DNA of 62,670 nucleotides, from positions 118,747-181,416 of the forward strand of contig DGYW01000058.1 of the NCBI GenBank assembly GCA_002396805.1, read 5' to 3'. Shown here piece by piece: positions 6,041-22,523 of this stretch; position 1 is the stretch's first letter, and every line of letters begins with the position of its first letter. Origin of the DNA: Firmicutes bacterium UBA4996. GTDB lineage: Bacteria > Bacillota > Limnochordia > Darwinibacteriales > Darwinibacteriaceae. Below the pieces are notes generated by a model. The model did no database searches and was not told where the DNA came from. It saw only the letters and a list, made by a program, of their open reading frames with translations. The translations under genes and the position numbers were made by a program.

Positions 6041-6077
6041 GTTGCCATTTGCCTCGGTATTTTGAGGAAGGTATAAA

Positions 6078-6644
6078 ATGCAAATTAATTGGAAGTCAAT
6101 ACTTACCTTAACTTTAACCACTTTTGCGTTGTCTGTAGTACTTAATCTAGGTAGTAACAGCGTATTGTCGTTTTTGCCCTTGACACTAAGCTTTTTGTTA
6201 CTACTTTTTATTATCTTTATTGGAGTTATTTTTGACATAATCGGAGTTGCGGCCACCGCGGGTGAAGAAGCTCCCTTTCATGCCATGGCATCCAATCGTC
6301 TAGCTGGGGCGAAACAAGCAATTTGGCTAGTACGGAATGCCGATGGCGTTTCTACTTTTTGTAACGATCTCATTGGGGACGTTGCTGGAACTTTGAGCGG
6401 CGCGATTGGCGTAGCCGTTATCTTTCAGCTTAAGTCGTTCTCCTTAGGGATAGGCGAAGCTTTGGCTACCACCGTGATGGTAGCTTTGGTGGCAGCTTTT
6501 ACTGTTGGGGGTAAATCTATCGGCAAGAGTTTTGCCATTTCTAAGTCAACGGCAATCCTCACAGTAGTTGGTCGGATTCTTTACTCCCTAGAACGGGTGG
6601 GTTTAAGATTTGATTCCACCTCCGCAAAAAACAAGAAGAGGTAG
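6078..6644 (+). CDS. oapA: OLE-associated membrane protein OapA-like
   Basis: 188 aa (~21 kDa) with about four TM segments, immediately downstream of the large structured RNA and upstream of dxs. Confidence 0.7.
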   Translation: MQINWKSILTLTLTTFALSVVLNLGSNSVLSFLPLTLSFLLLLFIIFIGVIFDIIGVAATAGEEAPFHAMASNRLAGAKQAIWLVRNADGVSTFCNDLIGDVAGTLSGAIGVAVIFQLKSFSLGIGEALATTVMVALVAAFTVGGKSIGKSFAISKSTAILTVVGRILYSLERVGLRFDSTSAKNKKR

Positions 6645-6649
6645 GGTAA

Positions 6650-8530
6650 ATGGGTACATTACTGCAAGAAATTAACTCCCCCGACGACATTAAGGGTTTG
6701 GATTTACATAGTCTTGAGGCCTTAGCCCAAGAGATTCGGGATCAGATTATCGAAACTGTAGAGCAAACCGGCGGTCATCTTGGTGCTAATTTAGGTGTAG
6801 TAGAATTGACTTTGGCCCTCCACTCTGTTTTATCCAGTCCGAGGGACCGCATTATTTGGGATGTAGGTCACCAGTGTTATGCGCACAAATTACTCACCGG
6901 TCGGAGGGAAGATTTCCACACCCTGCGCCAGATGGGTGGCATCTCGGGTTTTCCGCACCCACAAGAAAGTGTCCATGATCATTTTGGAGTGGGACACAGT
7001 TCTACTGCTATTTCCGCGGCTGCAGGGATGGCCATTGCCAGAGATCTTCAAGGCGAAGATTATAGCGTTGTGGCAGTTGTGGGTGATGGTGCTCTTACTG
7101 GGGGAATGGCCTTCGAAGCCCTTAATCATATCGGTTCACTGGGCAGAGATATCGTAGTTATTCTTAATGATAATGAAATGTCCATCACGAACAATGTAGG
7201 TGCCATGAGTGATTATTTAGGTCGCATTCGTTCAGACACTAAATTATACAAGGCTCGGGAAGACTTGGCAGCACTCTTGCTTAGGGTGCCTCTAGTTGGT
7301 AAGCCCATGTCGAAGGTGGCTCATTATTTCAAGAACACCCTAAAGAGTATGTTACCAGGCCAACTCTTTGAAGAACTGGGTTTCGCATACCTGGGCCCCT
7401 TTGATGGCCACAATATTCCCCAATTGAAAAAGGCCATTAAAGCAGGAATCCACCGTGGTGGTCCTGTCTTAATTCATGTTTATACTCAAAAGGGGCGTGG
7501 ACATGCCCTGGCTGAAGAGAGTCCCCACCGCTATCATGGTGTGGGCCCTTTACAAGTGGTTCCTAAAAAAGGAGCGGTGTCCTTCAGTGAAGTTTTTGGT
7601 CAATCGGTAGTCGAATTGGCCAAGGTAAATCCAAATGTAGTAGCCATTACAGCAGCTATGCGCGATGGAACCGGTTTAGGACAATTCGCAAAACAGTTCC
7701 CCGATCGCTTCTTTGATGTTGGCATAGCCGAACAACACGCCCTTACCTTAGCCGCAGGCATGGCCAAGGATGGCTTGCGCCCGGTTGTGGCCCTTTATTC
7801 GACTTTTCTACAAAGGGGCTATGATCAGGTGATCCACGACATTGCTCTTCAAGGTCTGCCGGTAATCATTGGTGTGGACAGAGCAGGTGTGGTAGGGGAT
7901 GATGGACCTACCCATCAAGGTGTATTTGACATTAGCTTCTTACGGGCCGTTCCAGGTTTGACTATCTTGGCGCCTCGTAATGGTAGTGAGCTGGTTGCCA
8001 TGTTAAACTGGGCTATTAGCCAAGGAGGTCCGGTGGCCATCCGCTATCCGCGGGGTGGAACTACGGACAACGCTTACCAGGAAAAGTTTTCCGAGGGAGA
8101 GCAAATACCTGCGTTGGAGTTAAAACCTGGGCGAGATGGGGTCATTTTTGCGGTAGGACATATGGTTGACGTAGCTCTAGAGGCTGCACGCCTTCTCGAG
8201 CCCGAATACAGTTGTGGGGTTGTCAATATTAGATCACTCAAACCCTTAGATGAAAGTCTATTGCTAAAGCTAGCCAGGGGAACAAGGTATGTGCTCACCT
8301 TAGAGGATCACGTTCTGGCAGGAGGAATGGGTAGTAGTATTCTAGAATTACTTAGTGAACAACCAGGCATAAAGGTGCAACGTCTCGGTTATCCAGATCA
8401 GTTTATTCCCCAAGGGTCTATTCCTCAACTCCACGAGGCCTATGGTTTGACTGCCCAGCAAGTAGCCAATACGTTCCGGAAAGCCATGTCTGGGGGAGTA
8501 TACCAGCTCGTGGCTAGTCCAGAGAAATAA
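6650..8530 (+). CDS. dxs: 1-deoxy-D-xylulose-5-phosphate synthase
   Basis: 626 aa. GGHLGANLGVVELTLALH, the ThDP motif GDGALTGGMAFEALN, and transketolase-like pyrimidine and C-terminal domains. Confidence 0.95.
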   Translation: MGTLLQEINSPDDIKGLDLHSLEALAQEIRDQIIETVEQTGGHLGANLGVVELTLALHSVLSSPRDRIIWDVGHQCYAHKLLTGRREDFHTLRQMGGISGFPHPQESVHDHFGVGHSSTAISAAAGMAIARDLQGEDYSVVAVVGDGALTGGMAFEALNHIGSLGRDIVVILNDNEMSITNNVGAMSDYLGRIRSDTKLYKAREDLAALLLRVPLVGKPMSKVAHYFKNTLKSMLPGQLFEELGFAYLGPFDGHNIPQLKKAIKAGIHRGGPVLIHVYTQKGRGHALAEESPHRYHGVGPLQVVPKKGAVSFSEVFGQSVVELAKVNPNVVAITAAMRDGTGLGQFAKQFPDRFFDVGIAEQHALTLAAGMAKDGLRPVVALYSTFLQRGYDQVIHDIALQGLPVIIGVDRAGVVGDDGPTHQGVFDISFLRAVPGLTILAPRNGSELVAMLNWAISQGGPVAIRYPRGGTTDNAYQEKFSEGEQIPALELKPGRDGVIFAVGHMVDVALEAARLLEPEYSCGVVNIRSLKPLDESLLLKLARGTRYVLTLEDHVLAGGMGSSILELLSEQPGIKVQRLGYPDQFIPQGSIPQLHEAYGLTAQQVANTFRKAMSGGVYQLVASPEK

Positions 8531-8532
8531 CG

Positions 8533-9318
8533 ATGCGTATTGATCAGCTCTTGGTTGCACTGGGCATGGTTTCTTCTAGACAGCGGGCTAAAGAACTAAT
8601 TACTGGAGGACAGGTGTATGCAGATGGACGCCAGATCTTAAAGTCCAGCTGGATTGTTCCCCAGGGGATCCAGCCGGAAATACGTGGACAAACCCTTGGA
8701 TATCCTAGTCGAGCGGGATTGAAACTAGCTACGGCATTGCAGTTCTTTCGGATCAATGTGGAAAATTTGGTCGCTCTAGACGTAGGGGCTTCAACAGGAG
8801 GATTTACTAGTTGCCTGTTGCAAAATGGTGCTAAGAAGGTTTTCGCAGTGGATGTTGGACAAGACCAGCTGGTACCAGAATTACGGGAGGATACTAGGGT
8901 AGTGAGTTTAGAAAAAACCAATATTCGTGATTTGTCCTCTGAGCATTTAGGAGAATTGGTGGATATTGCTACCATAGATGTGTCTTTTATCTCGCTCAAG
9001 CTGGTGTTTCCCCCGGTGCGTGAATTGCTCAAGCAACAGGGTGAGATCGTTGCTTTAGTAAAACCGCAGTTCGAGACCGGTGGCAGGGGTTTGAACAAAC
9101 ACGGGGTTATTAGTGACCCTTGTGTTCATCGGGAATTTATTCCGCCACTCATTGCAGAATTGCAGAAGAAAGGGTGTGGACTGCGGGGATTCCATAGTTC
9201 GCCCCTCACCGGTGCTAAGGGAAATCTGGAATACTTAGCCCACTTCCAATTGGGCCACCCTATCCAAGATGCAACACAGCTAGTTCTGGAAGTGATCGAA
9301 GCAGCGTGGAGAGATTAG
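8533..9318 (+). CDS. tlyA: TlyA family rRNA (cytidine-2'-O)-methyltransferase
   Basis: 261 aa. S4 domain N-terminus (RIDQLLVALGMVSSRQRAKELI) and SAM motif LDVGASTGGFT. Confidence 0.88.
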   Translation: MRIDQLLVALGMVSSRQRAKELITGGQVYADGRQILKSSWIVPQGIQPEIRGQTLGYPSRAGLKLATALQFFRINVENLVALDVGASTGGFTSCLLQNGAKKVFAVDVGQDQLVPELREDTRVVSLEKTNIRDLSSEHLGELVDIATIDVSFISLKLVFPPVRELLKQQGEIVALVKPQFETGGRGLNKHGVISDPCVHREFIPPLIAELQKKGCGLRGFHSSPLTGAKGNLEYLAHFQLGHPIQDATQLVLEVIEAAWRD

Positions 9319-9337
9319 TTCTCGTGTAAGGGAGGAG

Positions 9338-10183
9338 TTGCCATTGGAGATTGGAATCATTCCGCATACGGGCAAGCCTGTGGCCATGGCTCTGACCACT
9401 GAATTAGAGACCTTTTTAGATAATCGGGGAGTAAATAGCCGAATTATCGAAGAACCCAACCATACCAACTTGGCAGAGTTTGATGTTGTGATTGTCTTAG
9501 GCGGAGATGGTACATTGCTCAATGCGGCACGCTTGACAAGCGAGGTGCAGGTACCTGTTTTTGGAGTTAACGTGGGCCATCTGGGTTTTTTGACTGAAGT
9601 GGAGACCGATGGTCTTTTTCCCGCTGTGGAAAGACTGCTATCTGGCAACTATCAGTTAGAACAACGGATGTTGATTGAAGCATCAGTTAAACGAAAAGGC
9701 GAAATCATTGGAACCTATTTGGCTTTGAATGATTTTGTAATTACAAGGGGTACCTTCGCCCGGATTATTGACTTAAGCATTTTCGTGGACAGTCAACATG
9801 TGACCGATTATGTTGCCGATGGAATAATTGTAGCTACGCCCACAGGTTCCACAGCCTATTCGCTCAGCGCGGGGGGGCCCATTATTGAGCCCCTTTTGGA
9901 GAGTATTTGTGTTACTCCCATTTGTGCCCATTCTCTTGCATCCCGTTCTGTTCTCGCTAGGCCCCAAGCACAAGTTTGTGTTCGCTTGAATAGTGCGAGC
10001 GAAGAAGTAATGCTCACCATCGATGGTCAACACGGTTTTCCTTTGCAGACGGGCGATCAGGTCGCCATCAAACGGGCGGTTCAACCTGCCCTCTTTGTGA
10101 AGTTAAGTGGACGAGGCTTTTTCCAAGTATTACACAGTAGGCTGAAAATGCCTCAAACCTGGGGTGGTATTCATGAAGAATAA
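9338..10183 (+). CDS. nadK: NAD kinase
   Basis: 281 aa. GGDGTLL and ATPTGSTAYSLSAGGPI motifs. TTG start. Confidence 0.9.
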   Translation: MPLEIGIIPHTGKPVAMALTTELETFLDNRGVNSRIIEEPNHTNLAEFDVVIVLGGDGTLLNAARLTSEVQVPVFGVNVGHLGFLTEVETDGLFPAVERLLSGNYQLEQRMLIEASVKRKGEIIGTYLALNDFVITRGTFARIIDLSIFVDSQHVTDYVADGIIVATPTGSTAYSLSAGGPIIEPLLESICVTPICAHSLASRSVLARPQAQVCVRLNSASEEVMLTIDGQHGFPLQTGDQVAIKRAVQPALFVKLSGRGFFQVLHSRLKMPQTWGGIHEE

Positions 10184-10655
10184 AAGGCAGAATAAAATTC
10201 TGGAGATAGTTGCTCAAAATAGTGTAGAAACCCAAGAGGAGCTCATGGGCTTCCTTCACGAAGCGGGGCATCGGGTGACACAGGCTACGGTTTCCCGAGA
10301 TATTAAGGAACTTCGTCTGGCGAAGATCCCGAACGGCCAAGGCGGTTATAAATATTCTGTGTCAACGAGCGTTACTAAAGGGGACTTGCTTCGTCGCGCC
10401 ACGAGAATCTTCGAGGACTACGTGCGGAGTGTTGATTTTAGTGGTTCTTTGATCATGATTAAAACCTATCCTGGAGGCGCTAACGCAGTAGCGGCCGTCA
10501 TTGATGAACTTGAGTGGCCAGAGATGATTGGTAGCATCGCAGGGGATGATTCTATTCTGATCTTAACCCGTTCTGATAACGAAGCTGAGCTAAGCGAGCC
10601 TACAGGACCTACAGGTGAAGTATACTCACGTATTCAGGAATTAATGGAAGGGTGA
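10173..10655 (+). CDS. argR: arginine repressor
   Basis: MKNKRQNKILEIV...QEELMGFL...VTQATVSRDIKEL winged helix plus a C-terminal GDDSILI oligomerisation/arginine-binding motif. ATG at 10173 follows GGGGTGG. Confidence 0.9.
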   Translation: MKNKRQNKILEIVAQNSVETQEELMGFLHEAGHRVTQATVSRDIKELRLAKIPNGQGGYKYSVSTSVTKGDLLRRATRIFEDYVRSVDFSGSLIMIKTYPGGANAVAAVIDELEWPEMIGSIAGDDSILILTRSDNEAELSEPTGPTGEVYSRIQELMEG

Positions 10656-10659
10656 GCCT

Positions 10660-12360
10660 GTGCTAAAGGAACTTCAGATCCGTAATTTCGCCTTAATCGA
10701 AGCGTTAGAATTATCTTTTTATTCTGGATTCAGTGTTCTCACTGGTGAGACGGGCGCTGGCAAGTCTATTATTATTGATGCGCTAGGTCTGCTCTTAGGC
10801 GCGCGGGCCTCCGTGGAGATGATTCGTACAGGGGCCGAAACTACCGAGGTGGCCGGAAGTTTCGCATTAGTTCCCTCAGCTCAAGTTCTTCTTGAATCTT
10901 GGGGAATGCTAGATGGTGGTGAGCTGATTATCTCAAGAGAGCTCAATTTGAACGGACGCAATAAGTGTTGGATTAATGGGCGTTTGGCAACCGTAAGCCA
11001 GCTTGCTGAGCTTGGTGTGCATCTCGTTGATATCATTGGTCAACACGATAGCCAGACTTTGCTGGATCCCCAACAACACAGCAGCCTATTAGATGCTTAT
11101 GGGGGCGCGGAGCATTTGGCCTTATTGGCTGATGTTGCAGGTTTAGCCTCAAAGTGGTCCTCTTTGCAGGCAGAGCAGAAGCGTCTACAGCGGGATGAAC
11201 GAGAACGCAATCGACGTATCGATCTACTGACTTTCCAGATTGAAGAGATTGCCAACGCCCACTTGCAGCCTGGAGAGGACGAAGCTCTAGAAGTGGAACG
11301 TTCTCGGTTAGCTAATTTGGATCGTATTCGTCAAAGCCTACATTTTGTCCTTATGACCCTAGGAGAAACCTTTGAAGAGCAGGAATCTTTGTTAAGGCGC
11401 TTAGCTCTGACAGAGGCAGAATTGGAACGGGCCACAGCCCTAGATTCTACCTTGCAACCACTTACGGAGCGTTATACAGAAATTGCCCTTAATTTCAACG
11501 ATCTCCATGGCGAATTGCGTGATTACCTTGAAGCACTTCCGGCGGATCCAGAATTGCTCCAAGAGATAGAAGAACGCCTTGAACTAATCAATAATTTGCA
11601 GCGTAAATATGGTGCTACTGTTGGTGAAATTCTCCAGTACCAAGAGGACGCCCGAAGAGAACTTGAAGATCTAGAAAATGCCGTAGTGCGTGTTGGTGGC
11701 CTAGAAAAAGAGAGCGACGAAATCAAGGAACATTGGTTGCAACAGGCTCAAAGACTTAGTGCATCAAGGATGGCATTGGCCCAGGACTTAGAGGAACAGA
11801 TTGAAGCCCAATTGGCAGATCTATCCATGGGAAACACCAAATTTAGGGTCCGATTTGATGAACGCTCTCCTAAGTTGCCCAATCCAAATGGCCTGGAAGA
11901 GCTGGAGTTCATGATGGCTCCAAACTTGGGCGAGGAGCTAAAGCCTTTAGCCAAGATCGCCTCAGGAGGCGAACTTTCTCGGGTCATGTTAGCCATCAAG
12001 GCTATCTTAGTAGAAACCGAACAGGTTCCCACGATCATTTTTGACGAAATTGACGCGGGGATTGGCGGACGCACAGCCGTTAATTTAGGGGAAAAGCTCT
12101 TTTCCCTTAGTGGCGTTCGCCAAGTTCTTTGTGTGACTCACCTACCCGTAATTGCTAGCTATGGGACCAACCATTATTCTGTTCGCAAGTCAACTGGAAC
12201 TGAGCGTACCACTGTGACCGTGACTAAACTGGAACCCCAGGATCGGATCGAAGAGCTCACGCGTATGCTAGGAGGCACTAGGGATGAAGCGGTAACTCTG
12301 GAGCATGCTAAAGAGTTACTCAGAAAGAGCAGACCAGACTTGCCCCACTCTGGTATGTAG
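10660..12360 (+). CDS. recN: DNA repair protein RecN
   Basis: 566 aa. Walker A GETGAGKS, long coiled coil, SGGELSR signature and FDEIDAGIGG. Confidence 0.95.
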   Translation: MLKELQIRNFALIEALELSFYSGFSVLTGETGAGKSIIIDALGLLLGARASVEMIRTGAETTEVAGSFALVPSAQVLLESWGMLDGGELIISRELNLNGRNKCWINGRLATVSQLAELGVHLVDIIGQHDSQTLLDPQQHSSLLDAYGGAEHLALLADVAGLASKWSSLQAEQKRLQRDERERNRRIDLLTFQIEEIANAHLQPGEDEALEVERSRLANLDRIRQSLHFVLMTLGETFEEQESLLRRLALTEAELERATALDSTLQPLTERYTEIALNFNDLHGELRDYLEALPADPELLQEIEERLELINNLQRKYGATVGEILQYQEDARRELEDLENAVVRVGGLEKESDEIKEHWLQQAQRLSASRMALAQDLEEQIEAQLADLSMGNTKFRVRFDERSPKLPNPNGLEELEFMMAPNLGEELKPLAKIASGGELSRVMLAIKAILVETEQVPTIIFDEIDAGIGGRTAVNLGEKLFSLSGVRQVLCVTHLPVIASYGTNHYSVRKSTGTERTTVTVTKLEPQDRIEELTRMLGGTRDEAVTLEHAKELLRKSRPDLPHSGM

Positions 12361-12429: not shown

Positions 12430-13869
12430 GTGAGGAAAATCTTGCTCCGTTTGGGGCTCGTAGTTGTTCTCGTTTTGGTTCTCATCCTAGCCGCGGCACC
12501 GTATTGGGTAACAGCAGTTGGTGTTCCTCGGCAATTAAAGGTCTTTCCCGGTATGGAATTGGTCTTGAATTTGCAGCCGCCCTTGCGACTATACGATGGT
12601 GAAGGTCTAGAAATCACGGGATTAATCAATACAGAACAACTAGGTACCAGCACTTATCGGGTAAATCTTTTTGGGTGGTTACCCCTAACTGAAGTTGTCG
12701 TTGACGTAGTACCGCTAATTCAGGTTTATCCCGGGGGGCAATCCATTGGTGTTTTGCTCAGTGCTGATGGACTATTGATTAACCAAGTTGGTGGGGTTGT
12801 GGGCATGGACGGTATCGAGCATTTTCCCGCTAAAGAGGCAGGCATCCAACCTGGTGATATTCTAATCTCCATTGAGGGTCATAGTCTGAGGCGTCCAGAA
12901 CAGGTCAGCCAGCTGGTCAATGCTTTAGCCGAGGAGAAGAACATTCTAACAGTGGTGGTGCGTCGTCAAAATCGCACCTTAACGTGTGACGTTAGACCCG
13001 TGAAAACCCGACGCCTAGATGTCCTAGGGAGAAATACCATTGGTTACTACCTTGGTATTTATGTAGAAAATCCAGCGGCAGGCGTAGGGACAATGAGTTT
13101 TTATCATGCGGAAACGGGGCGTTTTGGGGCGCTAGGGCATACCATTACAGATAGCTTAGGTAGACCTATTCGCATTGTTTCCGGAAGCATTGTGGAGGCT
13201 TCTATCGATAGCATTCGGGTGGGCAGTAAGGGTTCACCAGGGGAAAAAGTAGGCTTCTTCCACGGGGAGCAAGATGTCTTAGGAAGTATTGACTCGAATT
13301 CTAATTTTGGTATCTTCGGTCAGTTAAAGAGTTCATTTCAACATCCGGCCTTTACCCAACCGGTTCCGGTGGCCTTTGCGCACCAAGTAAGGGAAGGACC
13401 GGCAGAGATTTATACGGTGCTAAGGGGCAATCGTGTTGAACGTTTCACCGTTGAGATCATTAAAGTGAGTAATCAAGCTAAACCTAGTGACAAAGGAATG
13501 GTTGTTCAGGTAACGGATGAACGTCTTTTGCGGGAGACTGGAGGAATAATTCAGGGCATGTCTGGTAGCCCAATTTTACAGAATGGAATGTTAGTTGGGG
13601 CAATTACGCATGTTTTCGTAAATGATCCCACTCGCGGTTACGGAAGCTTTGCAGAATGGATGGTTTACGAGGCAGGCTTGACCACAGAACTTCCTGCGAA
13701 ACAATCGGTTTCGCAGGAAGGTTTTTTTTTACATATAGAGAAGAACCCTAGTAAAAGCAAAGACAAGGCATATCTTATAATAAGAGATTTAATAGGGAGA
13801 GTGTGGAATGGAGTCAAAGACACTTGTATTAGGAGTAATTGGGTCAGATGTTCACGCCGTTGGAAATAA
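12430..13869 (+). CDS. spoIVB: SpoIVB peptidase (S55); the 3' end as called is suspect
   Basis: N-terminal TM, PDZ ([13 protein letters not shown]), catalytic [20 protein letters not shown]. The last ~49 codons run through a terminator hairpin and T9 tract and overlap glmS. Confidence 0.9.
13690..13730 (+). terminator. intrinsic terminator inside the called 3' end of spoIVB
   Basis: Perfect 13-bp stem CTTCCTGCGAAAC / GTTTCGCAGGAAG (13690-13702 / 13708-13720), 5-nt loop, 1 nt, then T9 (13722-13730). Confidence 0.8.
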
Positions 13870-14218
13870 AATTTTGGAGGTTTCCTTTCAACAAGCCGGG
13901 TTTGACGTGGTTAATTTAGGTGTCTTGGTCTCCCAAAAAGAATTTGTGGAGGCTGCTGTAGAGACAAACGCGGATGCAATCATGGTTTCATCACTGTATG
14001 GCCATGGCGAAATCGATGTCCGTGGACTACGAGAGGCGTTGATTGAGGCTGGTATTGGGGACATTCTGATGTATATCGGTGGCTATCTAGTTGTAGGGAG
14101 CCAGGACTGGGCCGATGTTGAGAACAAGTTTAAACAATTGGGCTTTGATCGGGTCTATCCACCCAGCACTTTACCTGAAGATGTTATTCCCACACTGAAG
14201 GCCGACCTAGGCATATGA
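13808..14218 (+). CDS. glmS: glutamate (methylaspartate) mutase sigma subunit, B12-binding
   Basis: 136 aa. [18 protein letters not shown] (DxHxxG cobalamin ligand motif), near-colinear with my recollection of clostridial MutS/GlmS. Confidence 0.92.
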
Positions 14219-14231
14219 TGGAGGTCTACGG

Positions 14232-15626
14232 ATGTCAGAAATAATTCTGGTTGATATTGGAAGCACCTTTACCAAAGTTACGGCGGTAGACTTGACCGCC
14301 GCACACCTTATCGCCCAAGCAAATGCCCCAACCACGCCGGATGATGTGAGCATTGGCTTACAAAATGCCTTGGACAACTTGGGGATATCTCAACAAGTGA
14401 TGGCCCGAGCTCGTAAGCTTGCTTGTTCGAGTGCGGCGGGCGGGTTAAGGATGGTGGCAATCGGACTTGTCCAAGATTTGACCGCTGAGGCAGCTAAACA
14501 AGCGGCATTAGGTGCTGGGGCCAGGGTTCTGAAGACATATTCTTTTCAGCTCACAGAGTCTGATTTAGAAGAGATTATCCAGCTTCAACCAGATATTATT
14601 CTTTTGGCTGGAGGTACTGATGGTGGTAATACTGCTAACATCTTGCACAATGCTCAGGCCTTAGCGACTTTGCCCCAGGGAATACCTGTAGTTATCGCCG
14701 GAAATCGTTCGGTTGGACCTGAGGTAGCTCGTTGTTTTCCTGAACGTTTTAGTACTTATGTAGCTCCTAATGTGATGCCCCAAATTGGTAAATTAGAGGT
14801 TGAGCCTGCTCGGGAAGTAATTCGGAAAGTCTTCATGGAAAAGATAATTTATGCCAAGGGTTTAGACAAGGCTGGACGTTTAATTGAGGGGATCTTTATG
14901 CCTACTCCCGCGGCTGTTTTGCGGTCTGGCAGGCTTCTGAGTAGCGGTACCGCACTTACCAAGGGGTGGGGAGATCTCCTCATTGTGGATGTGGGTGGTG
15001 CTACCACCGATGTCCATTCTTTAGGGACCGGATCCCCTAGTAAAGCGGGTGTGGTCCAGAGGGGACTGCCAGAACCTTTCGCCAAACGAACTGTAGAGGG
15101 AGATTTGGGCATGAGGGTTAGTGTTTTATCTCTCCTCGATGCGATTAACCCAGCGGTCTTGGCTCGCGACTTGAATTGGAATCAAGAAAGAGTGGAGCAG
15201 AGGGCGAAGAAATTGTCTGCACAACCCGAATTGCTACCACAAAATCCGGAGGAAATTGCCTTTGATCAAACCTTAGGGTACCAGGCAGTAAAACTCGCAG
15301 TGGGCAGGCATGTAGGGAGACTCTCTGAATTATATACTCCGTCGGGGTTAGTTTGGATGCAAGATGGCAAGGATCTCTCATTAGTGAATAGGGTGATTGG
15401 GACCGGTGGAGTTATGGTAAATAGCGGAAACGCCCACTTTATGCTCAAAGGGGCAGAACATCAGCTAGAAGCCCCTTTGGAATTGCGTCCCGAAAAGCCT
15501 CATTATTTCTTGGATGGAAAGTATATTTTAGCACCTATGGGGCTGTTGGCTGAAGATTATCCAGAAGTGGCCCTGAAAATTCTCAAAGATTCATTAAACG
15601 ATCATGAGCTCGCAAGGAGGGACTAG
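14232..15626 (+). CDS. glmL: glutamate mutase accessory/reactivating protein GlmL (MutL)
   Basis: 464 aa. MSEIILVDIGSTFTKVTAVD ASKHA-type N-terminus. Located between the S and E subunits as in Clostridium. Confidence 0.85.
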   Translation: MSEIILVDIGSTFTKVTAVDLTAAHLIAQANAPTTPDDVSIGLQNALDNLGISQQVMARARKLACSSAAGGLRMVAIGLVQDLTAEAAKQAALGAGARVLKTYSFQLTESDLEEIIQLQPDIILLAGGTDGGNTANILHNAQALATLPQGIPVVIAGNRSVGPEVARCFPERFSTYVAPNVMPQIGKLEVEPAREVIRKVFMEKIIYAKGLDKAGRLIEGIFMPTPAAVLRSGRLLSSGTALTKGWGDLLIVDVGGATTDVHSLGTGSPSKAGVVQRGLPEPFAKRTVEGDLGMRVSVLSLLDAINPAVLARDLNWNQERVEQRAKKLSAQPELLPQNPEEIAFDQTLGYQAVKLAVGRHVGRLSELYTPSGLVWMQDGKDLSLVNRVIGTGGVMVNSGNAHFMLKGAEHQLEAPLELRPEKPHYFLDGKYILAPMGLLAEDYPEVALKILKDSLNDHELARRD

Positions 15627-15629
15627 TAG

Positions 15630-17087
15630 TTGGTGGCGCAAATTACACATGGTAAGTTGGATTGGTACGATCTTAAACAAGAACGGGAAGAAGTATTGGC
15701 TGGTTGGGTTACTGGTCAAGAGGTAGACTTGGAGGATGCGGTTCGCTTTCACCTGGCTCTACCCTCCCATCTCAATTTTGGTGTACGTATGGCCCAGGCC
15801 AAAGAAGAAGGAAAGACTCTCGCTCAGCCCCGGGCAGGGGTGGCTGATTTAACTAGCCATATTGGTTTACTAAAGTTCTTGCAGGATGAAGGTGGCGCAG
15901 ATCTTTTACCGACCACGATCGATTCTTACACCAGACAGAATCGTTATGAAGAAGCGGAAAGAGGTTTGGAAGAAAGTGTCCGTGAAGGTCGTTCACTCTT
16001 GAATGGCTTTCCCGCCGTAAATCACGGTGTGGCCAATTGTCGCCGCCTTGTAGAAAGCTTGTCTGTACCAGTGCAAGTGCGCCATGGCACCCCAGATGCT
16101 CGTTTACTGGCAGAAATAACCTTAGCAGCTGGTTTTACCGCTTATGAGGGAGGCGGTATTTCTTATAACATTCCCTACGCTAAGCGCGTGCCCTTAGAAA
16201 AAAGTATTCGCGATTGGCAATACGTGGATCGACTCACAGGCTTTTATGAGGAGCAAGGCGTTACCATTAACCGTGAACCTTTTGGACCTCTAACTGGAAC
16301 CCTAGTGGCACCTAGTGTCTCCCATAGTGTGGCCATCATCGAAGCCATTCTAGCGGCTAAGCAAGGGGTGAAGAGTCTGACTTTGGGTTACGGACAATGC
16401 GGAAATCTCATGCAGGACGTGGCCGCACTTCAGACATTAACCATACTTGCAGAAGAATACTTAGAAGCAGAAGGTTTAACAGATGTGGAAATCACCACCG
16501 TATTTCACCAGTGGATGGGAGGATTTCCCAATGATGAGGCTCGGGCCTTTGGAGTGATCTCCCTTGGGGGCGCTGCGGCAGCTCTGGGCAAGGCTACTAA
16601 AGTGATCGTAAAAACCCCACATGAAGCCTTAGGCGTTCCTACTAAGGAGGCAAACGCTCAAGGTATTCGCGCCACGAAGCAAGTCCTAAGTATGCTCCAG
16701 GATCAAATGTATCCAGAAAACGATAAACTGGCTTTCGAGCGGGAGATCATTATTCAAGAGACTCGTGAGATTCTCAACAAGACCCGTGAATTGGGTGAAG
16801 GTGATTGGGCAGTAGGTACTGTGCGCTCCTTCGCCGCCGGAGTTATTGACATACCATTTGCGCCTAGCTCGTTTAACGCGGGAAGAACCATGCCTGCTCG
16901 GGATAATGACGGTGCAATACGCTTTTTATCTTGGGGTAATTTGCCCTTCAGCAAGGACATTCAGGATTTCCATCGCTCGAAACTGGCAGAGCGGGGCAAA
17001 GCGGAGCAACGAACCCCCAGTTTCCAAATGGTTATTGACGATGTTTATGCCATTGGTCAAGGTAAGTTAATAGGAAGACCTCGTTAG
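15630..17087 (+). CDS. glmE: glutamate (methylaspartate) mutase epsilon subunit
   Basis: 485 aa. AQPRAGV...[18 protein letters not shown]...[12 protein letters not shown]...FHQWMGGFP...VIVKTPHEA, colinear with my recollection of clostridial MutE. Confidence 0.95.
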
Positions 17088-17104
17088 AGAACTCTCGCTA
17101 GGAG

Positions 17105-18469
17105 ATGATTGAATTGGATGAACTAAGAATTTTGTCCCCCACGGCGATTCTAGGCTATGGTTTTCCCTTAGCCTCTTTTCAGGCCGGATTAGAGCGTAGT
17201 CCACATGTTATTGCGGTTGATGCAGGTTCAACAGACCCAGGTCCTTATTATCTAGGTTCTGGCCAGTCGTTTACCCAACGTTCTGCAGTCAAGCGTGACT
17301 TACGTCACTTAATTGAAGCGGCTCTCACGCGCAATATTCCGCTAGTCATTGGGTCTGCTGGTGGTTCTGGTGCAAAGCCCCATGTGGAGTGGAATTTAGC
17401 CATTGTAGAAGAGGTGTTGGCAGAACTCGGCAAGACTGCCCGATTAGCGGTTATTTATAGTGACATAGATCGTCAATTGGTCGCGGAAAAGCTCAAGAAA
17501 GACCAGGTCCAGCCCCTGGGTCCTATTGCGCAATTGACAGAGGAAGAAATCTTTGCCAGTACGAACCTAGTAGCTCAAATGGGTCTAGAGCCCATCATGG
17601 AGGCACTCCAAGAAGGCGCAGAGATTATTCTGGCGGGTAGGGCCTATGATCCCACTGCTTTTGCGGCGTTGCCAGTCCTTAAGGGCTATGATCTTGCCCT
17701 AGCTTTGCATCTTGGGAAAATACTGGAGTGTGCAGCTATTGCCGCTAATCCAGGCAGCGGTAGTGATTGCTTAATGGGTTACCTTTATAAGGATTCCTTT
17801 GTGTTAGAAGCTCTCAATCCACAGCGGGAGTGCACGAGGATCTCGATTGCCGCCCATACTCTTTATGAAAAGAGTAATCCTTACTTTTTGCCTGGTCCAG
17901 GAGGACGTTTAGATCTAACTAAGACTGTGTTCGAACAGTTGCCAGGAGGCAAGGTTAGGGTTTCGGGAACTACCTTTACACCTACAGATGGTTATTTTGT
18001 CAAACTGGAAGGGGCACGCCTCATCGGATATCGGACTATCAGTATTGCTGGTGTGCGCGATCCTATCATGATTGGACAGATAGACGAGGTAATCGCAGGT
18101 GTTAAGGAACGGGTCGAGGATAATTTTCAAGAACTCCAAGACTATCAGTTACATGTGCACTGTTACGGTAAGAACGGCGTGATGGGGGCTTTAGAACCTC
18201 ATCCTGAACCGGGACATGAGTTGGGGTTAGTAATTGAGGCAGTGGCAAGCACTCAGGAAGTAGCGGATACTATTTGCAGCTTTGCCCGCTCCACACTCTT
18301 ACACTATGGTTATCCAGGCAGGAAATCTACGGCAGGTAACTTAGCTTTTCCCTACTCACCTTCTGACGTTTCAGCGGGAGCAGTTTACAAGTTTAATGTG
18401 CACCACTTGATGCAAATAGAAGATCCGAAGAGCCTATTTCCAATTAAGATGGGGAGGAGTGGTCTATGA
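17105..18469 (+). CDS. uncharacterised protein, DUF1446 (AtuA N-terminal domain)-like
   Basis: 454 aa. Assignment rests mainly on the overlapping downstream DUF4387-like partner (the AtuA domain order split into two genes). No direct catalytic motif recognised. Confidence 0.5.
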   Translation: MIELDELRILSPTAILGYGFPLASFQAGLERSPHVIAVDAGSTDPGPYYLGSGQSFTQRSAVKRDLRHLIEAALTRNIPLVIGSAGGSGAKPHVEWNLAIVEEVLAELGKTARLAVIYSDIDRQLVAEKLKKDQVQPLGPIAQLTEEEIFASTNLVAQMGLEPIMEALQEGAEIILAGRAYDPTAFAALPVLKGYDLALALHLGKILECAAIAANPGSGSDCLMGYLYKDSFVLEALNPQRECTRISIAAHTLYEKSNPYFLPGPGGRLDLTKTVFEQLPGGKVRVSGTTFTPTDGYFVKLEGARLIGYRTISIAGVRDPIMIGQIDEVIAGVKERVEDNFQELQDYQLHVHCYGKNGVMGALEPHPEPGHELGLVIEAVASTQEVADTICSFARSTLLHYGYPGRKSTAGNLAFPYSPSDVSAGAVYKFNVHHLMQIEDPKSLFPIKMGRSGL

Positions 18470-18768
18470 GATACGTCAAGGATGTTGCTTTGGTGATTCG
18501 AAGTAAAAACGCGGGCCCTTATGAACTAACATTTGACCTCATGTTTCCTGATGAAGAAAGCTACGATGAAGTGCGACAAAGTATTACCAAAGCGAAGATT
18601 GCCCAGTTATACCAGATTGAGGAGAGTGAGGTGCTCTCTCTAGTGCACTTTGCTCCGGCCCATGCCATCAAGATTACTATTGTGCGCCCTCGGGCTTCAG
18701 GTGACCTTGGGGAAACGGATGTTTATGGTGCACAGCAACACGCACCCCTTTTTGACCTAACTTATTAA
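18466..18768 (+). CDS. uncharacterised small protein, DUF4387 (AtuA C-terminal ferredoxin-like domain)-like
   Basis: 100 aa. IRSKNAGPYELTFDLMF and DVYGAQQH motifs as I recall them for this family. 4-nt overlap with the upstream gene. Confidence 0.55.
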   Translation: MRYVKDVALVIRSKNAGPYELTFDLMFPDEESYDEVRQSITKAKIAQLYQIEESEVLSLVHFAPAHAIKITIVRPRASGDLGETDVYGAQQHAPLFDLTY

Positions 18769-18782
18769 AGGAGTGGTGGAAA

Positions 18783-20030
18783 TTGAAGATTAAGGATGTC
18801 GTTTTATCCAAAGGGTTAACGGGGTTTTATTTCGACGATCAAAAGGCTATTCGACAAGGGAATTTTCGCGAAAATGGCCTTGCTTATGATGGTGATCCGG
18901 TGACACCAGGATTCACCAGCATTCGCCAAGCTGGCGAAAGCGTTTCTATTCAATTAGTCTTAGAGAGCGGGCAAGTAGCCTATGGTGACTGTGCCGCGGT
19001 GCAATACTCTGGTGCTGGTGGCCGAGATCCCTTGTTTTTAGCTGATGATTATATTCCCCTGATCGAGAAATACGTCGTACCCGTAGTAAAGGGAAAAGCA
19101 TTAACCTCTTTTAAGCAGTTAGCCAAAGAAGTAGATCAGATTAAAGATAGTAATGGTAAACTAATGCATACTGCCATTCGTTATGGAGTGACTCAGGCTC
19201 TGCTTGATGCGGTAGCCCGAAGCAAAGGGGTAACTATGGCAGAAGTAATCGTTGATGAATATGGTTTGGAGCTAACTCCCGAACCAGTCCTAATCTTTTG
19301 CCAAACCGGAGATGATCGCAAGATCAATGCGGACCGCATGATCATTAAGCAAGCAGATATGCTGCCCCACGGTCTGTTTAACAACGTTAATAAACTTGGT
19401 AAGAATGGAGAGCATCTTAAGGAATACTTAGCTTGGTTGAAGGAGCGGGTCCAGGAACTAAAGACATGTCCTGACTATCTACCTGATTTTCAAGTTGACG
19501 TTTACGGTACCATCGGTGAGGCTTTCAATAACGATATTGCTAAGGTAGGCGAATATGCAAGAGAGCTAGCGGAGATAGTTGCACCACATAAGTTGCTCAT
19601 TGAAGGACCCATCGAGTGCTCCACTCGGGATGAGCAAATTAAGGCCATGGCGGATTTGAGGACCTATGTGGATGAGCGTAACATTCCGGTCAAATTCGTA
19701 GTAGATGAATGGTGTAATACTCTTGATGATATCAAGGCCTTTACCGATGCTAAGGCTGGACATATGATTCAGATTAAGGCTCCGGATCTGGGGGGCATCA
19801 ATAATTCTGTAGAAGCGGTAATCTACTGTCACAAAAACGGTATGCTACCGTATTTGGGTGGAACCTGTAATGAAACAGAGCGTTCTGCTCAGATCACTGT
19901 TCAAGTCGCAGTGGCAACCCAGCCGAGACAGATTCTTTCTAAGCCAGGTATGGGTGTGGACGAGGGATTGTCTATATGCACTAACGAAATGAATCGTCTG
20001 GTGGCTCTTTTGAAGAGCAGAGCAAGGTAG
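18783..20030 (+). CDS. mal: 3-methylaspartate ammonia-lyase
   Basis: 415 aa. GLTGFYFDDQ...DCAAVQYSGAGGRDPLF...HMIQIKAPDLGG...GGTCNETERSA, colinear with my recollection of clostridial beta-methylaspartase. Confidence 0.95.
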   Translation: MKIKDVVLSKGLTGFYFDDQKAIRQGNFRENGLAYDGDPVTPGFTSIRQAGESVSIQLVLESGQVAYGDCAAVQYSGAGGRDPLFLADDYIPLIEKYVVPVVKGKALTSFKQLAKEVDQIKDSNGKLMHTAIRYGVTQALLDAVARSKGVTMAEVIVDEYGLELTPEPVLIFCQTGDDRKINADRMIIKQADMLPHGLFNNVNKLGKNGEHLKEYLAWLKERVQELKTCPDYLPDFQVDVYGTIGEAFNNDIAKVGEYARELAEIVAPHKLLIEGPIECSTRDEQIKAMADLRTYVDERNIPVKFVVDEWCNTLDDIKAFTDAKAGHMIQIKAPDLGGINNSVEAVIYCHKNGMLPYLGGTCNETERSAQITVQVAVATQPRQILSKPGMGVDEGLSICTNEMNRLVALLKSRAR

Positions 20031-20039
20031 GGGATAGAA

Positions 20040-20882
20040 GTGAGAGTAATTAAGTATGACGACATAGTGGCCCGGACTAAAGCCCTGTGTTTGGACGCTA
20101 ATCGGCATCTTCCTGCCGATGTCTTTGGAGCCCTGAAGCGCGCTCAAGAGCAAGAGGTCTCTCCCTTAGGCAAAAATGTTTTAGATACCATTTTGGAAAA
20201 CGCGGAGATTGCTCGCACCAAATCCATGGCGCTTTGTCAGGACACTGGTATGGTTGTTGTTTTCGCCGAGGTCGGTCAAGACGCACGGATTGAAGGTGGA
20301 TTACTCACTGATGCAATTGACGAGGGTGTGCGTCAGGCTTATGATGAAGGGTATCTACGCAAAAGCGTCGTTGGTGACCCCTTAGAGCGAGTAAATACAG
20401 GAGATAACACTCCCGCGGTTGTGCACGTCTCTTTGGTAGCAGGCGATCAACTGCGCCTGACTGTGGCACCAAAAGGTTTTGGTAGTGAAAACATGTCTGC
20501 CCTCCGTATGCTTAAACCTGCGGAAGGCGTACAAGGTGTGAAGGACTTCATTGTGGAGACAGTTACCAAGGCTGGCGGTAATCCCTGTCCACCCATTATT
20601 ATTGGAGTTGGGATTGGAGGTACCTTTGAAAAGGCGGCCTTGATGGCCAAGCGATCTGTCTTGCGGGAAATTGGATCCAAGCATCCAAAACCACACCTGG
20701 CTCAGCTTGAAGAAGAGCTCTTAGAACTGGTCAACAAAACTGGTGTAGGACCGCAGGGCTTTGGTGGTACGCAAACAGCCTTAGCCGTCTTTGTGGATAC
20801 TTATCCAACCCATATAGCGGGATTGCCAGTGGCCGTAAACATTAACTGCCATGTGGCAAGACATGTGGAGGCGATTCTCTAA
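20040..20882 (+). CDS. Fe-S type hydro-lyase alpha subunit (class I fumarase / tartrate dehydratase alpha type; candidate mesaconase alpha)
   Basis: 280 aa. ALCQDTGMVVVF, VAPKGFGSENMS, and IIIGVGIGGTFE motifs of the FumA N-terminal domain. Confidence 0.85.
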   Translation: MRVIKYDDIVARTKALCLDANRHLPADVFGALKRAQEQEVSPLGKNVLDTILENAEIARTKSMALCQDTGMVVVFAEVGQDARIEGGLLTDAIDEGVRQAYDEGYLRKSVVGDPLERVNTGDNTPAVVHVSLVAGDQLRLTVAPKGFGSENMSALRMLKPAEGVQGVKDFIVETVTKAGGNPCPPIIIGVGIGGTFEKAALMAKRSVLREIGSKHPKPHLAQLEEELLELVNKTGVGPQGFGGTQTALAVFVDTYPTHIAGLPVAVNINCHVARHVEAIL

Positions 20883-21748
20883 TGCACTATACTACTCTAG
20901 TTCAGGCGGTTTACTATGCGCCTAGGGGCCGCAAAAGGTTAATGCACTTGGGCATGCTAATTTCCCAGCGATATTTGGGTGCAGAAAACCGCCTGATTGG
21001 GGTGGTTGGTGACTCAGGGGCAGGCAAATCCCTATTGATTCGAGGGATGTTTCCTGGTCTTGTCTTAACAAATGACGATGATGGGGTGAACAACCGACCT
21101 CTTCCGGTCTTGGATGATGCTGGGAACGACTTTTTTCGGACCCACAGCTATCACTTAGATGTGCGTTTTGAAATGGCCTTTACTCCTCTGTGGGAGTTAG
21201 CTGATGCGGTTCGAAAGGCGGTCTCCAGTGGACATCGGGTGATTGTAGAGCACTTCGATTTGCTGTATCCTTTACTCAACCTTAACGCTGAAGTGTTAAT
21301 TGGGATTGGGGAAGAAGTTGTTGTTACTGTTCCCACTCTATTTGGTCCCTTTCCAGCTGAAGTGGCTCAGCAGGCCTTCGATTCCTTAGTTTATCGCAAA
21401 ATGGCCCATAGTGCAGAAGACCTTACTTCTGTAGTTTTCGAACAAATGGGGTTTGAGGCACCAACTATGCACAGCGATGTACGGAGAGGTTTTGTTGTGG
21501 AGTTTTCCCAGAAGCCAGAAGTTGATTTGGCCGAAGTGGAGCGCAGGGTACTGGAATATATTGCCCAGGATTTGCCGATTGGATTTTACAAAGACAATGC
21601 CATCTTAATCGGTGACGAGGTTTTGGAATGTACTGGGCCGCGGATTCATATGTCTTCTACGGGTAAAATTGAACGATTTCGTTTGGATAAAAGTTTTCAG
21701 TATTCGCCGATCACCAAGACTTTCTTGCTGGCCGGACGAGTTGGGTAA
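20882..21748 (+). CDS. uncharacterised P-loop protein
   Basis: 288 aa. Walker A-like IGVVGDSGAGKSLLIRG resembles the HPr kinase-type P-loop. Start overlaps the upstream stop (TAATG). Confidence 0.45.
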   Translation: MHYTTLVQAVYYAPRGRKRLMHLGMLISQRYLGAENRLIGVVGDSGAGKSLLIRGMFPGLVLTNDDDGVNNRPLPVLDDAGNDFFRTHSYHLDVRFEMAFTPLWELADAVRKAVSSGHRVIVEHFDLLYPLLNLNAEVLIGIGEEVVVTVPTLFGPFPAEVAQQAFDSLVYRKMAHSAEDLTSVVFEQMGFEAPTMHSDVRRGFVVEFSQKPEVDLAEVERRVLEYIAQDLPIGFYKDNAILIGDEVLECTGPRIHMSSTGKIERFRLDKSFQYSPITKTFLLAGRVG

Positions 21749-21761
21749 TGGGGTGAAGTCC

Positions 21762-22523
21762 ATGTCGGGGGCGATTAGGATTTTGCAGGCGGACGCGGAC
21801 AGCGTTTTCAGGCAAGATGTGTCTAGATATTTTGAAAGTTTGGAAGACTTTGTCTATATAGAAGGACTAGAGGCTGCAGACAGGATTTTAGATTCTATTG
21901 CAGAGCACCAGCCCAATATTGTTCTCTTGGATTTGGATTTACCACCACAGGGTGGTTTCCCAGTTCTCGGGGAAATTCGAAAACGTTGGAGTAACGATAC
22001 TTTACCTATAATAATGCTCGCCAGATCACATAAGGCAGAAGCTCATCTAACACAAGCAGTTGCTTTGGGTGCCAGCTATTTTATTCTCCGCCCAGTGGAT
22101 TTGGTGGTGCTGGAAAACCGTGTTCGGCAGCTCCTCAATACCACTCCCCTTGTTATTGACAATGGTTTATCACTAAAGCAAGTGCAGGAGATCTGTGTGC
22201 GCTATTTTGATGCCATGGGGATACCTCCCCACTACAAGGGTTATCGCTATTTGATCGAAGGGATTTGGTTAGCTTCCCTGCATCCAACTTGGTTAAGTTC
22301 TATGACGAAAAAACTCTACCCTGCCATTGGTCAGCGCTTTGGTACTAGTGGATCTCAGGTGGAGCGAGCCATGCGTTATGCCTTGGATATGACATGGGAA
22401 AAGGGCGTTCTAGAAGAATTGTATCGTTTGTTTCCCTACGAGGTGCGGGAAAACAAAGGCAAACCTACTAACTCCGCTTTTATCGCTAAGATGGCAGACT
22501 TGGTGGCTTTAGAAGCGGGGTAG
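21762..22523 (+). CDS. spo0A: sporulation master regulator Spo0A (receiver domain non-canonical)
   Basis: C-terminal Spo0A DNA-binding domain (HYKGYRYLIEGI..., SQVERAMRYALD, KPTNSAFIAKMAD). ATG 21762 follows GGGGTGA. The ORF-track start at 21612 overlaps the previous gene. Confidence 0.9.
   Translation: MSGAIRILQADADSVFRQDVSRYFESLEDFVYIEGLEAADRILDSIAEHQPNIVLLDLDLPPQGGFPVLGEIRKRWSNDTLPIIMLARSHKAEAHLTQAVALGASYFILRPVDLVVLENRVRQLLNTTPLVIDNGLSLKQVQEICVRYFDAMGIPPHYKGYRYLIEGIWLASLHPTWLSSMTKKLYPAIGQRFGTSGSQVERAMRYALDMTWEKGVLEELYRLFPYEVRENKGKPTNSAFIAKMADLVALEAG

Follow-up and report, generated by a model that had tools for sequence, protein, structure and literature searches.

A predicted CmlAB-type citramalate lyase encoded within the glutamate mutase-methylaspartase operon of an uncultured member of the Bacillota

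The two overlapping genes that lie between the glutamate mutase and methylaspartase genes of Firmicutes bacterium UBA4996, here called cmlA and cmlB, in all likelihood encode a CmlAB-type citramalate lyase, predicted to split (S)-citramalate into pyruvate and acetate as the last step of glutamate fermentation. This assignment is based on homology and predicted fold identity to a crystallised CmlAB, on operon membership, and on a distribution complementary to that of citDEF, the genes of the other type of citramalate lyase. The analysis covers a window of 62,670 nucleotides, that is, the whole stretch of DNA studied, taken from contig DGYW01000058.1. An initial annotation of this DNA had described the pair as a module with no established biochemical role, a statement that no longer holds, as PDB entries 9ERQ and 9EVF name the pair citramalate lyase CmlA/CmlB and a 2026 preprint makes use of the enzyme. 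Its proposal of an alternative step acting on a C5 dicarboxylate was right in substance, the pair being an alternative enzyme for citramalate cleavage. The observation itself is real, the function of the pair is very probably already explained by the solved CmlAB, and the window departs from that characterised system only in gene order and host lineage.

Organisation of the operon and of the gene pair

All the genes of the operon are on the forward strand, in the order glmS-glmL-glmE-cmlA-cmlB-mal-mesA-U288, with glmS first and U288 last. Glutamate mutase is encoded by glmS (mutS, 13808..14218), for the B12-binding small subunit (NF002612/TIGR01501 equivalog, 215 bits; Pfam B12-binding), glmL (mutL, 14232..15626), for the accessory or reactivating protein (NF040745, 590 bits; MutL, PF13941), and glmE (mutE, 15630..17087), for the catalytic subunit (TIGR01503, 744 bits; PF06368). 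On the other side of the pair, mal (18783..20030; TIGR01502, 562 bits; MAAL_N and MAAL_C) encodes methylaspartate ammonia-lyase, which converts 3-methylaspartate into mesaconate and ammonia, and mesA (20040..20882; PF05681 Fumerase, 389 bits; NF004885) encodes the alpha subunit of a class I fumarase-type mesaconase, converting mesaconate into (S)-citramalate. The last gene, U288 (20882..21748), codes for a conserved and unnamed P-loop protein of 288 residues with the Walker A motif GDSGAGKS.

The genes within 10 kb comprise recN, spoIVB, the glm genes, mal, mesA, spo0A, steA and cell-wall genes. The GC content of the operon (47.8%) is near that of the whole window (47.2%), and the recN-spoIVB-[operon]-spo0A-steA layout is common to relatives whose flanking genes are just 34-72% identical; a recent horizontal gain of the operon was rejected on these two observations. 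Scanning for promoters and terminators gave counts at chance level (11 vs 11.2 and 10 vs 10.8), the sole feature standing out being a hairpin at 13690-13729, and no riboswitch or leader was found with Rfam upstream of glmS.

The pair itself consists of cmlA (17105..18469), for the large subunit of the predicted lyase (AtuA/DUF1446 family), and cmlB (18466..18768), for the small one (DUF4387). Both open reading frames are present between glmE and mal, as first described, and share an ATGA overlap (junction GGTCTATGAGATACG) by which cmlB is translationally coupled to cmlA; moreover, GGAGG is found 8-9 nt upstream of the cmlB ATG. The length of 100 aa originally given for the small product was borne out, but the 454 aa of the large open reading frame exceed the 451 aa of the public gene calls. 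These calls imply a start of cmlA at the TTG at 17114, which lies 9 nt past AGGAG (17100-17104), and the ATG at 17105 immediately adjoins the same AGGAG, with no gap; a true start at the TTG, giving a product of 451 aa, is likely.

As regards protein families, Pfam agrees with the earlier reading of a DUF1446/AtuA large part with a separately encoded DUF4387. CmlA matches PF07287 (AtuA, formerly DUF1446) with 73.9 bits and an E-value of 1.4e-20 (Pfam cut-off, 22.8 bits), although the match is partial, its best stretch pairing residues 63-213 with positions 59-209 of the 437 in the profile. In turn, CmlB matches PF14330 (DUF4387) over its full length (126 bits, E 7.4e-37), and the motifs IRSKNAGP and DVYGAQQH, already noticed from the letters, occupy its residues 11-18 and 85-92. 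No NCBIfam model matches either protein. That cmlA and cmlB are real genes and not chance reading frames follows from the existence of more than 7,800 homologs of the window protein in a homolog search and from the 118 residues that are invariant among 32 CmlA sequences, including 9erq_A. The window CmlA keeps all of these (118/118), which serves as a proxy for conservation of the active site, and CmlB likewise keeps the 26 subfamily-invariant residues (26/26), RSKNxGP and DVYGAQQH among them.

Relationship to the crystallised CmlAB and to AtuA

The structures 9ERQ and 9EVF are those of the CmlAB citramalate lyase of Raoultella planticola (Berg laboratory), in which chains A and B are named "Citramalate lyase subunit A (cmlA)" and "subunit B (cmlB)"; 9EVF, released on 2025-10-08, is entitled "Citramalate lyase – ADP – pyruvate complex". 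The window CmlA aligns with 9erq_A over residues 7-441 vs 5-439 (phmmer, E 1.2e-155, 522 bits), with 54.5% identity over 435 aa (BLASTP), and CmlB aligns with 9erq_B over residues 7-98 (E 2.8e-23) and shares 48% identity with its E. coli counterpart. The AF2 model of CmlA (pLDDT 88) matches 9evf_A with a Foldseek TM of 0.92 (E 5.6e-64, rmsd 3.0, 451 columns), the comparison being of a predicted with a solved structure; no further PDB match to the model reached E <= 0.001, the next one having a TM of 0.14.

The resemblance to the R. planticola enzyme covers an AtuA-family subunit of about 455 aa and a DUF4387 subunit of about 105 aa encoded by overlapping genes, nearly full-length identity (54.5% for A and about 48% for B), the predicted fold, and a location inside a glmS-glmL-glmE-mal cluster devoid of citDEF. 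Furthermore, the crystallised CmlA is 92% identical to the protein encoded directly 3' of mal in E. coli, where the cluster reads glmS-glmL-glmE-mal-[AtuA fam]-[DUF4387]-gltP-fumD-cobO, and it therefore comes from the same type of cluster. Unlike in R. planticola, cmlAB in the window separates glmE from mal and does not follow mal, the host is an uncultured spore-forming member of the Bacillota and not an enterobacterium, and the operon holds U288 and a split mesA in place of a full-length FumD.

The activity assigned to CmlAB derives from the names given by the PDB depositors and from one preprint with in-vivo use (10.64898/2026.01.16.699985). In that work, R. planticola cmlAB in E. coli allowed the plasmid-dependent, 13C-verified use of mesaconate as an acetyl-CoA source, and the enzyme, received as a gift, is said to split citramalate into pyruvate and acetate directly. 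Our search of the accessible literature library found this preprint and a 2015 note on DUF1446, with no primary peer-reviewed description of CmlAB. The 2015 note (Kronen et al., PMC4682846) concerns a 'DUF1446' gene 3' of mal in Enterobacteriaceae and Dictyoglomus, often misannotated as methylaspartate ammonia-lyase, which belongs to the same family and the same kind of cluster as the window cmlA; the paper gave it no function, whereas the later PDB depositions did. Among the homologs collected here, P0087 bears the same wrong name. At an identity of 54%, the substrate preference of the window CmlAB may have shifted.

In acyclic terpene utilisation, AtuA is made as one fused polypeptide from a gene of the atuABCDEFGH cluster and acts on a CoA ester. 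It shares the PF07287 and DUF4387 families with the window pair, and the same type of reaction, cleavage beside a tertiary carbinol with release of acetate, is proposed for it, AtuA having long had a tentative assignment as a lyase that releases acetate from 3-hydroxy-3-isohexenylglutaryl-CoA. Given this assignment, the placement of CmlA in the AtuA family by Pfam, and an identity of just 54% to the characterised CmlA, the pair could be imagined as an AtuA-type lyase for another 3-hydroxy-3-substituted acid or acyl-CoA, or for a C5/C6 hydroxy-dicarboxylate, and not for (S)-citramalate. This is very unlikely: the large protein reaches 522 bits with CmlA but matches Pfam AtuA weakly and in part only (74 bits), the domains of the window pair are split into two genes as in CmlAB and stand in a glutamate-fermentation context, while a cited AtuA is 615 aa long, and genes for acyl-CoA carboxylase, dehydrogenase and hydratase are absent within 10 kb. 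Moreover, citramalate cleavage is the sole unassigned step of the operon, and the pair was never found together with citDEF in the surveyed loci. A role of the pair in acyclic terpene metabolism was rejected on the split architecture and the gene context.

Complementary distribution of cmlAB and citDEF

In the classical citramalate lyase an acyl carrier with a phosphoribosyl-dephospho-CoA group works with the acyl transferase CitF and the HpcH/HpaI-fold lyase CitE, and three maturation enzymes are required. This enzyme (EC 4.1.3.22; Clostridium tetani, C. tetanomorphum) shares with the predicted CmlAB its pathway position, its overall reaction and the kind of glm-mal-mes cluster in which it is encoded, but it is a CitD/CitE/CitF complex accompanied by CitC/X/G, and its proteins are unrelated: neither CmlA nor CmlB matches the CitDEF Pfam families (ACP gamma PF06857, HpcH/HpaI CitE, CitF). 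A tblastn search of the whole window with the C. tetani proteins found no citD, citE, citF, citC, citX or citG (best E 0.036). With no citDEF in the window, cmlAB would supply the final step of the pathway, and without cmlAB the operon would lack it.

The recurrence of the pair in such neighbourhoods, which the initial annotation had suggested surveying, was followed in 80 loci from different species, anchored on methylaspartase (Mal), of which at least 588 loci were found in all. The pair cmlAB is present in 30 of the 80 loci and a citDEF-type citramalate lyase in 33, with both in none (0/80); when only loci with at least 8 kb on each side of mal are counted, the figures are 19 with cmlAB, 22 with citD/E/F, none with both and 2 with neither. 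No sub-threshold cross hits between the two kinds of loci were seen among the 80. The associated Fisher p of 4e-10 overstates the significance, because the surveyed loci share phylogeny and are not independent. The replacement of citDEF by cmlAB is a textbook case of non-orthologous replacement.

Genes for glutamate mutase, methylaspartase and mesaconase accompany cmlAB in the window, in the 30 Mal loci and in E. coli, and the cmlAB-bearing loci include those of Prevotella, Porphyromonas and Treponema. Among the surveyed loci, an order with cmlAB ahead of mal is confined to the window and its two nearest relatives (L002 and L003), the pair following mal in 28 others and in E. coli, where the glmE locus was found in 1,095 of 5,426 complete genomes. 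The classical clostridial order given in the initial annotation, with mal directly after glmE, is seen in C. tetani (L058). Outside this cluster type, Desulfotomaculum nigrificans has a 63%-identical pair behind a TRAP dicarboxylate transporter and near mesA/mesB, with no glm or mal genes, a setting that fits C5-dicarboxylate catabolism.

These data also bear on the maintenance role that had been offered for the pair, in which it would be a nucleotide-dependent accessory factor of glutamate mutase or methylaspartase. The crystallisation of a homolog with ADP and the position between glmE and mal speak for such a role, to which we attach next to no likelihood. The 9EVF structure also holds pyruvate, a reaction product, and is named a lyase; in about half of the glm-mal clusters the pair is absent, and it is these that carry citDEF. 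The complementarity with citDEF, the presence of GlmL, which already fills the mutase accessory role, and the close D. nigrificans homolog in the absence of any glm or mal genes led us to reject it, and the suggestion is left unsupported.

Mesaconase and the P-loop protein U288

The less ordinary features of the locus are the conserved unnamed P-loop protein found in these clusters and the absent mesaconase beta subunit. A search with MesB found no mesB in the whole window (best E = 1.4), and the gene is also missing from the cluster in the two closest relatives, while mesA and mesB occur together in 40 other loci. As the mesaconase would have to supply CmlAB with its substrate, the lack of this subunit counts against the lyase assignment. 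This absence would favour cmlAB as a stand-in for the missing subunit, acting with MesA in the hydration linking mesaconate and citramalate and not at the lyase step. That reading is extremely improbable. It was rejected since at least 15 surveyed loci (e.g. L020, L023, L028, L040, L066, L074 and L080) carry cmlAB along with mesA and mesB. Furthermore, E. coli has cmlAB as well as a full-length FumD, it is citDEF and not mesB whose distribution complements that of cmlAB, and the fold search gave CmlA no similarity to the fumarase C-terminal domain.

The stop codon of mesA and the ATG of U288 share 1 nt (TAATG). The protein has more than 3,000 homologs and no match in Pfam or NCBIfam; it occurs in 32 of the 80 Mal loci, and stands beside or near cmlAB in 21 of the 30 cmlAB-type loci. 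Its AF2 model (pLDDT 89) gave TsaE-like and AlaX-like fold matches too weak to assign either function (TM 0.3-0.58), and a profile search against PDB sequences returned P-loop-level noise only. As CmlAB binds ADP in 9EVF and U288 lies near cmlAB in those 21 loci, U288 could be a partner of CmlAB; similarly, since this clade is the only one to lack mesB, MesA may serve as the mesaconase by itself or together with an unconventional partner protein. Taken together, a clade variant with U288 as a nucleotide-dependent activation or maintenance partner of CmlAB and with such a mesaconase is unlikely.

Proposed pathway and significance

In the pathway proposed for this organism, glutamate would first be converted into (2S,3S)-3-methylaspartate by GlmS/GlmE with the help of GlmL, 3-methylaspartate into mesaconate by Mal, and mesaconate into (S)-citramalate by the MesA-type mesaconase, after which CmlAB would yield pyruvate and acetate. 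The predicted enzyme would be a heteromer of an AtuA-family subunit of about 450 aa and a DUF4387 subunit of about 100 aa, cleaving its substrate directly, with no need for the acyl carrier protein and the thioester machinery on which the CitDEF-type enzyme relies. We infer a retro-aldol-type C-C cleavage, with the -CH2-COO- fragment leaving as acetate, and the conserved, glycine-rich loops G83-x-x-G86-G87-x-G89, D39-x-G-S-x-D44-P-G-P and P216-G-S-G-S-D221 probably contribute to the ADP site of 9EVF.

If true, the variant involving U288 and the mesaconase would mean that the methylaspartate pathway has a component not described before. As for the pair itself, glutamate fermentation would end with CmlAB in about half of the surveyed glm-mal clusters, and the main value of the finding lies in annotation, given that Pfam, NCBIfam and RefSeq still label such proteins "AtuA family", "DUF1446" or "DUF4387", and sometimes methylaspartate ammonia-lyase. 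The clean cmlAB-or-citDEF pattern over 80 species backs the deposited function with independent evidence from genomes and, at the same time, offers a simple either-or rule for pathway reconstruction in metagenome-assembled genomes.

Identity of the gene pair

The two genes lying between glmE and mal, here called cmlA (17105-18469, + strand, 454 aa) and cmlB (18466-18768, + strand, 100 aa), overlap by ATGA, as the initial annotation described, and both motifs which it reported in the small protein, IRSKNAGP and DVYGAQQH, are found there. Its family assignment, checked against Pfam, was also right: the large protein belongs to PF07287, AtuA (formerly DUF1446), with a partial match (E 1.4e-20), and the small one to PF14330, DUF4387, along its full length (E 7.4e-37); NCBIfam gave a model for neither. 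The start of cmlA is ambiguous, the ATG at 17105 directly abutting an AGGAG sequence (17100-17104) and a TTG at 17114 being located 9 nt past it; public gene calls give a product of 451 aa, which implies the TTG start.

A PDB sequence search returned a single strong match per protein, and entries 9ERQ and 9EVF each contain both: the large protein matches chain A (E 1.2e-155, residues 7-441), named "Citramalate lyase, subunit A (cmlA)", and the small one matches chain B (E 2.8e-23, residues 7-98), named "Citramalate lyase, subunit B (cmlB)". The identity of the window CmlA to 9erq_A is 54.5% across 435 residues. Moreover, its AlphaFold2 model (pLDDT 88) matches 9evf_A with a TM of 0.92 (E 5.6e-64), and the second-best PDB structure reaches a TM of just 0.14, so that the fold is otherwise unrepresented in the PDB. 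Judging from these sequence and model comparisons, the pair very probably encodes a CmlAB-type citramalate lyase, which would be the alternative enzyme for the last step of the methylaspartate pathway (glutamate to 3-methylaspartate, mesaconate, (S)-citramalate, and finally pyruvate and acetate). The general intuition of the initial annotation, an alternative step within this pathway, was correct, the step being very probably citramalate cleavage. What it observed does exist, and an explanation for the module is already at hand.

Conservation and proposed mechanism

The entry 9EVF, "Citramalate lyase - ADP - pyruvate complex", was released on 2025-10-08 (PDB). In the deposited structures (9ERQ/9EVF) A and B chains together form the CmlAB heteromer, which in 9EVF has pyruvate and ADP bound, and direct cleavage of citramalate by the enzyme has been shown or deposited by others. 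Furthermore, when cmlAB of Raoultella planticola was placed in E. coli, a plasmid-dependent and isotope-verified conversion of mesaconate-derived citramalate to acetyl-CoA precursors was reported in a preprint (10.64898/2026.01.16.699985). No primary paper describing CmlAB was found in the literature searched.

CmlA was compared among 32 sequences (the window protein, that of E. coli, 29 from surveyed loci and 9erq_A). All 118 invariant positions are kept by the window protein; among the near-invariant columns it departs at just two, with D for G at 133 and V for F at 351. The window CmlB retains 26 of 26 invariant positions. Citramalate would be split in a retro-aldol-type reaction, at the bond that joins the tertiary carbinol carbon to the -CH2-COO- group. 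Nucleotide, metal and substrate may be bound by the invariant glycine-rich loops of CmlA and by charged residues, for example D39, D44, H93, R179, D182, K205, E208, C209, H251, E255, K256, R395, H400 and R406.

Operon organization and genomic context

The pair belongs to an operon in which every gene lies on the + strand, with intergenic gaps of at most 26 nt or short overlaps. Pfam and NCBIfam identify glmS (13808-14218), glmL (14232-15626), glmE (15630-17087), mal (18783-20030, downstream of the Pfam-identified cmlA and cmlB) and mesA (20040-20882), which resembles genes for the alpha subunit of class I fumarases; the last gene, U288 (20882-21748), is without family match. No cit genes, those of the classical citramalate lyase, were detected in the window (tblastn best E 0.036), which leaves cmlAB as the sole candidate for the last pathway step.

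In Firmicutes, spoIVB and spo0A are normally neighbours. Here the 8-kb glutamate-fermentation operon is flanked by recN/spoIVB and spo0A/steA (region 12430-22523), a layout common to L002 and L003, the loci of the nearest relatives in the genome collection, and its GC content (47.8%) presents no anomaly with respect to the whole window (47.2%). A recent island, which was considered as the origin of the operon, is ruled out by this common layout and normal GC; for the same reasons the placement is an old, clade-wide arrangement. The nearest named homologs come from Bacillota/Firmicutes MAGs, and contigs of identical sequence from fermentation and digester metagenomes.

Upstream of the operon, about 80 nt 5' of the glmS ATG, a GC-rich hairpin with 13 perfect base pairs and a run of T9 behind it (13690-13729, + strand) resembles a terminator. 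It falls within the 3' end region of the spoIVB ORF (12430-13869, 479 aa), which overlaps glmS by 62 nt. The hairpin could terminate spoIVB, whose ORF would then be called too long, or it could belong to the leader of the glm operon; Rfam gave no match at this site. Elsewhere in the window, Rfam detects a full-length OLE (Ornate Large Extremophilic) RNA, a type typical of anaerobic Bacillota (5412-6064, + strand, 469 bits, E 2e-134), a T-box leader (47851-48063, + strand, 127 bits) located 5' of a 932-aa ORF (48093-50891), and a single tRNA gene (56185-56256, + strand).

Distribution of cmlAB and citDEF

The neighbourhood of mal was surveyed in other genomes. A Mal-anchored scan, with one genome per species, gave 588 confirmed loci, and the best 80 of these were scored by tblastn with Glm, Cml, Mes, Cit and U288 proteins, the classical MesB and CitD/E/F/C/X/G queries being taken from C. 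tetani. The pair recurs in 30 of the 80 Mal loci, always without citD/E/F; 33 carry citD/E/F only, none both and 17 neither; in 15 of these 17, one or both flanks of mal are shorter than 8 kb. For the 43 loci in which both flanks reach at least 8 kb, the corresponding figures are 19, 22, 0 and 2. With the coverage filter off, there were still no hidden cross matches between cmlAB and cit among the 80 loci. The exclusivity gives a Fisher p of 4e-10, although the loci lack phylogenetic independence. Such mutual exclusion is to be expected of two unrelated enzymes serving one step.

Loci of the cmlAB type range over Bacillota, Bacteroidota (Prevotella, Porphyromonas, Tannerella), Treponema, Sumerlaeota, deltaproteobacterial MAGs and E. 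coli. Among the surveyed loci, cmlAB precedes mal only in the window, L002 (83% identity) and L003 (69% identity), whereas it lies 3' of mal in the remaining 28 cmlAB loci and in E. coli; the order found here is a rearrangement of local extent, and no functional significance of it is obvious. A close homolog (62% identity) occurs within glmS-glmL-glmE-mal-cmlA-cmlB, followed by a 309-aa gene without Pfam match in the position usually occupied by U288. In Desulfotomaculum nigrificans (L086, region 6062-10694), cmlAB (63% identity) directly follows the genes of a dctPQM TRAP transporter; mesA and mesB lie some 7 kb further downstream, and glm and mal genes are absent. This context is compatible with citramalate or mesaconate catabolism and suggests a self-contained module through which either compound would be taken up and degraded.

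U288 and the mesA gene

U288 encodes a 288-aa protein with the Walker A motif GDSGAGKS and no match in Pfam or NCBIfam, whose family, with more than 3,000 homologs, bears the NCBI placeholder name [quoted passage not shown]. In its AlphaFold2 model (pLDDT 89) the N-terminal half weakly resembles TsaE/YjeE ATPases and the C-terminal half, also weakly, AlaX/tRNA_SAD domains. Homologs are present in 32 of the 80 Mal loci (21/30 of cmlAB type, 8/33 of citDEF type and 3/17 with neither), usually directly 3' of cmlB. U288 is a conserved and still uncharacterised component of the clusters for glutamate fermentation.

The mesB gene (Fumerase_C beta subunit) was found neither near mesA nor across the 62.7-kb window (best tblastn E 1.4). 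The two genes occur together in 40 of the surveyed loci; mesA stands alone only in the window, in L002 and L003, and in L041, which is truncated.

The E. coli cluster and database annotation

Matches to glmE are present in 1,095 of 5,426 complete E. coli genomes. The cluster, examined in one strain, reads glmS-glmL-glmE-mal-[AtuA family]-[DUF4387]-gltP-fumD-cobO, is devoid of citDEF, and its AtuA-family/DUF4387 pair has a 4-nt overlap, as in the window. The large subunit of E. coli shares 54% identity with the window CmlA (48% for the small subunits) and 92% with 9erq_A, which indicates that the crystallised enzyme comes from the same cluster type.

The presence of a DUF1446 gene 3' of mal in Enterobacteriaceae and Dictyoglomus, and its frequent misannotation as methylaspartate ammonia-lyase, were already pointed out by Kronen et al. 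2015 (PMC4682846). Some CmlA homologs, the database protein P0087 among them, are indeed misnamed "3-methylaspartate ammonia-lyase, partial", and RefSeq names the E. coli pair (L001 11430-13114) "AtuA family protein" and "DUF4387 domain-containing protein". Database names thus trail behind the deposited CmlAB structures.
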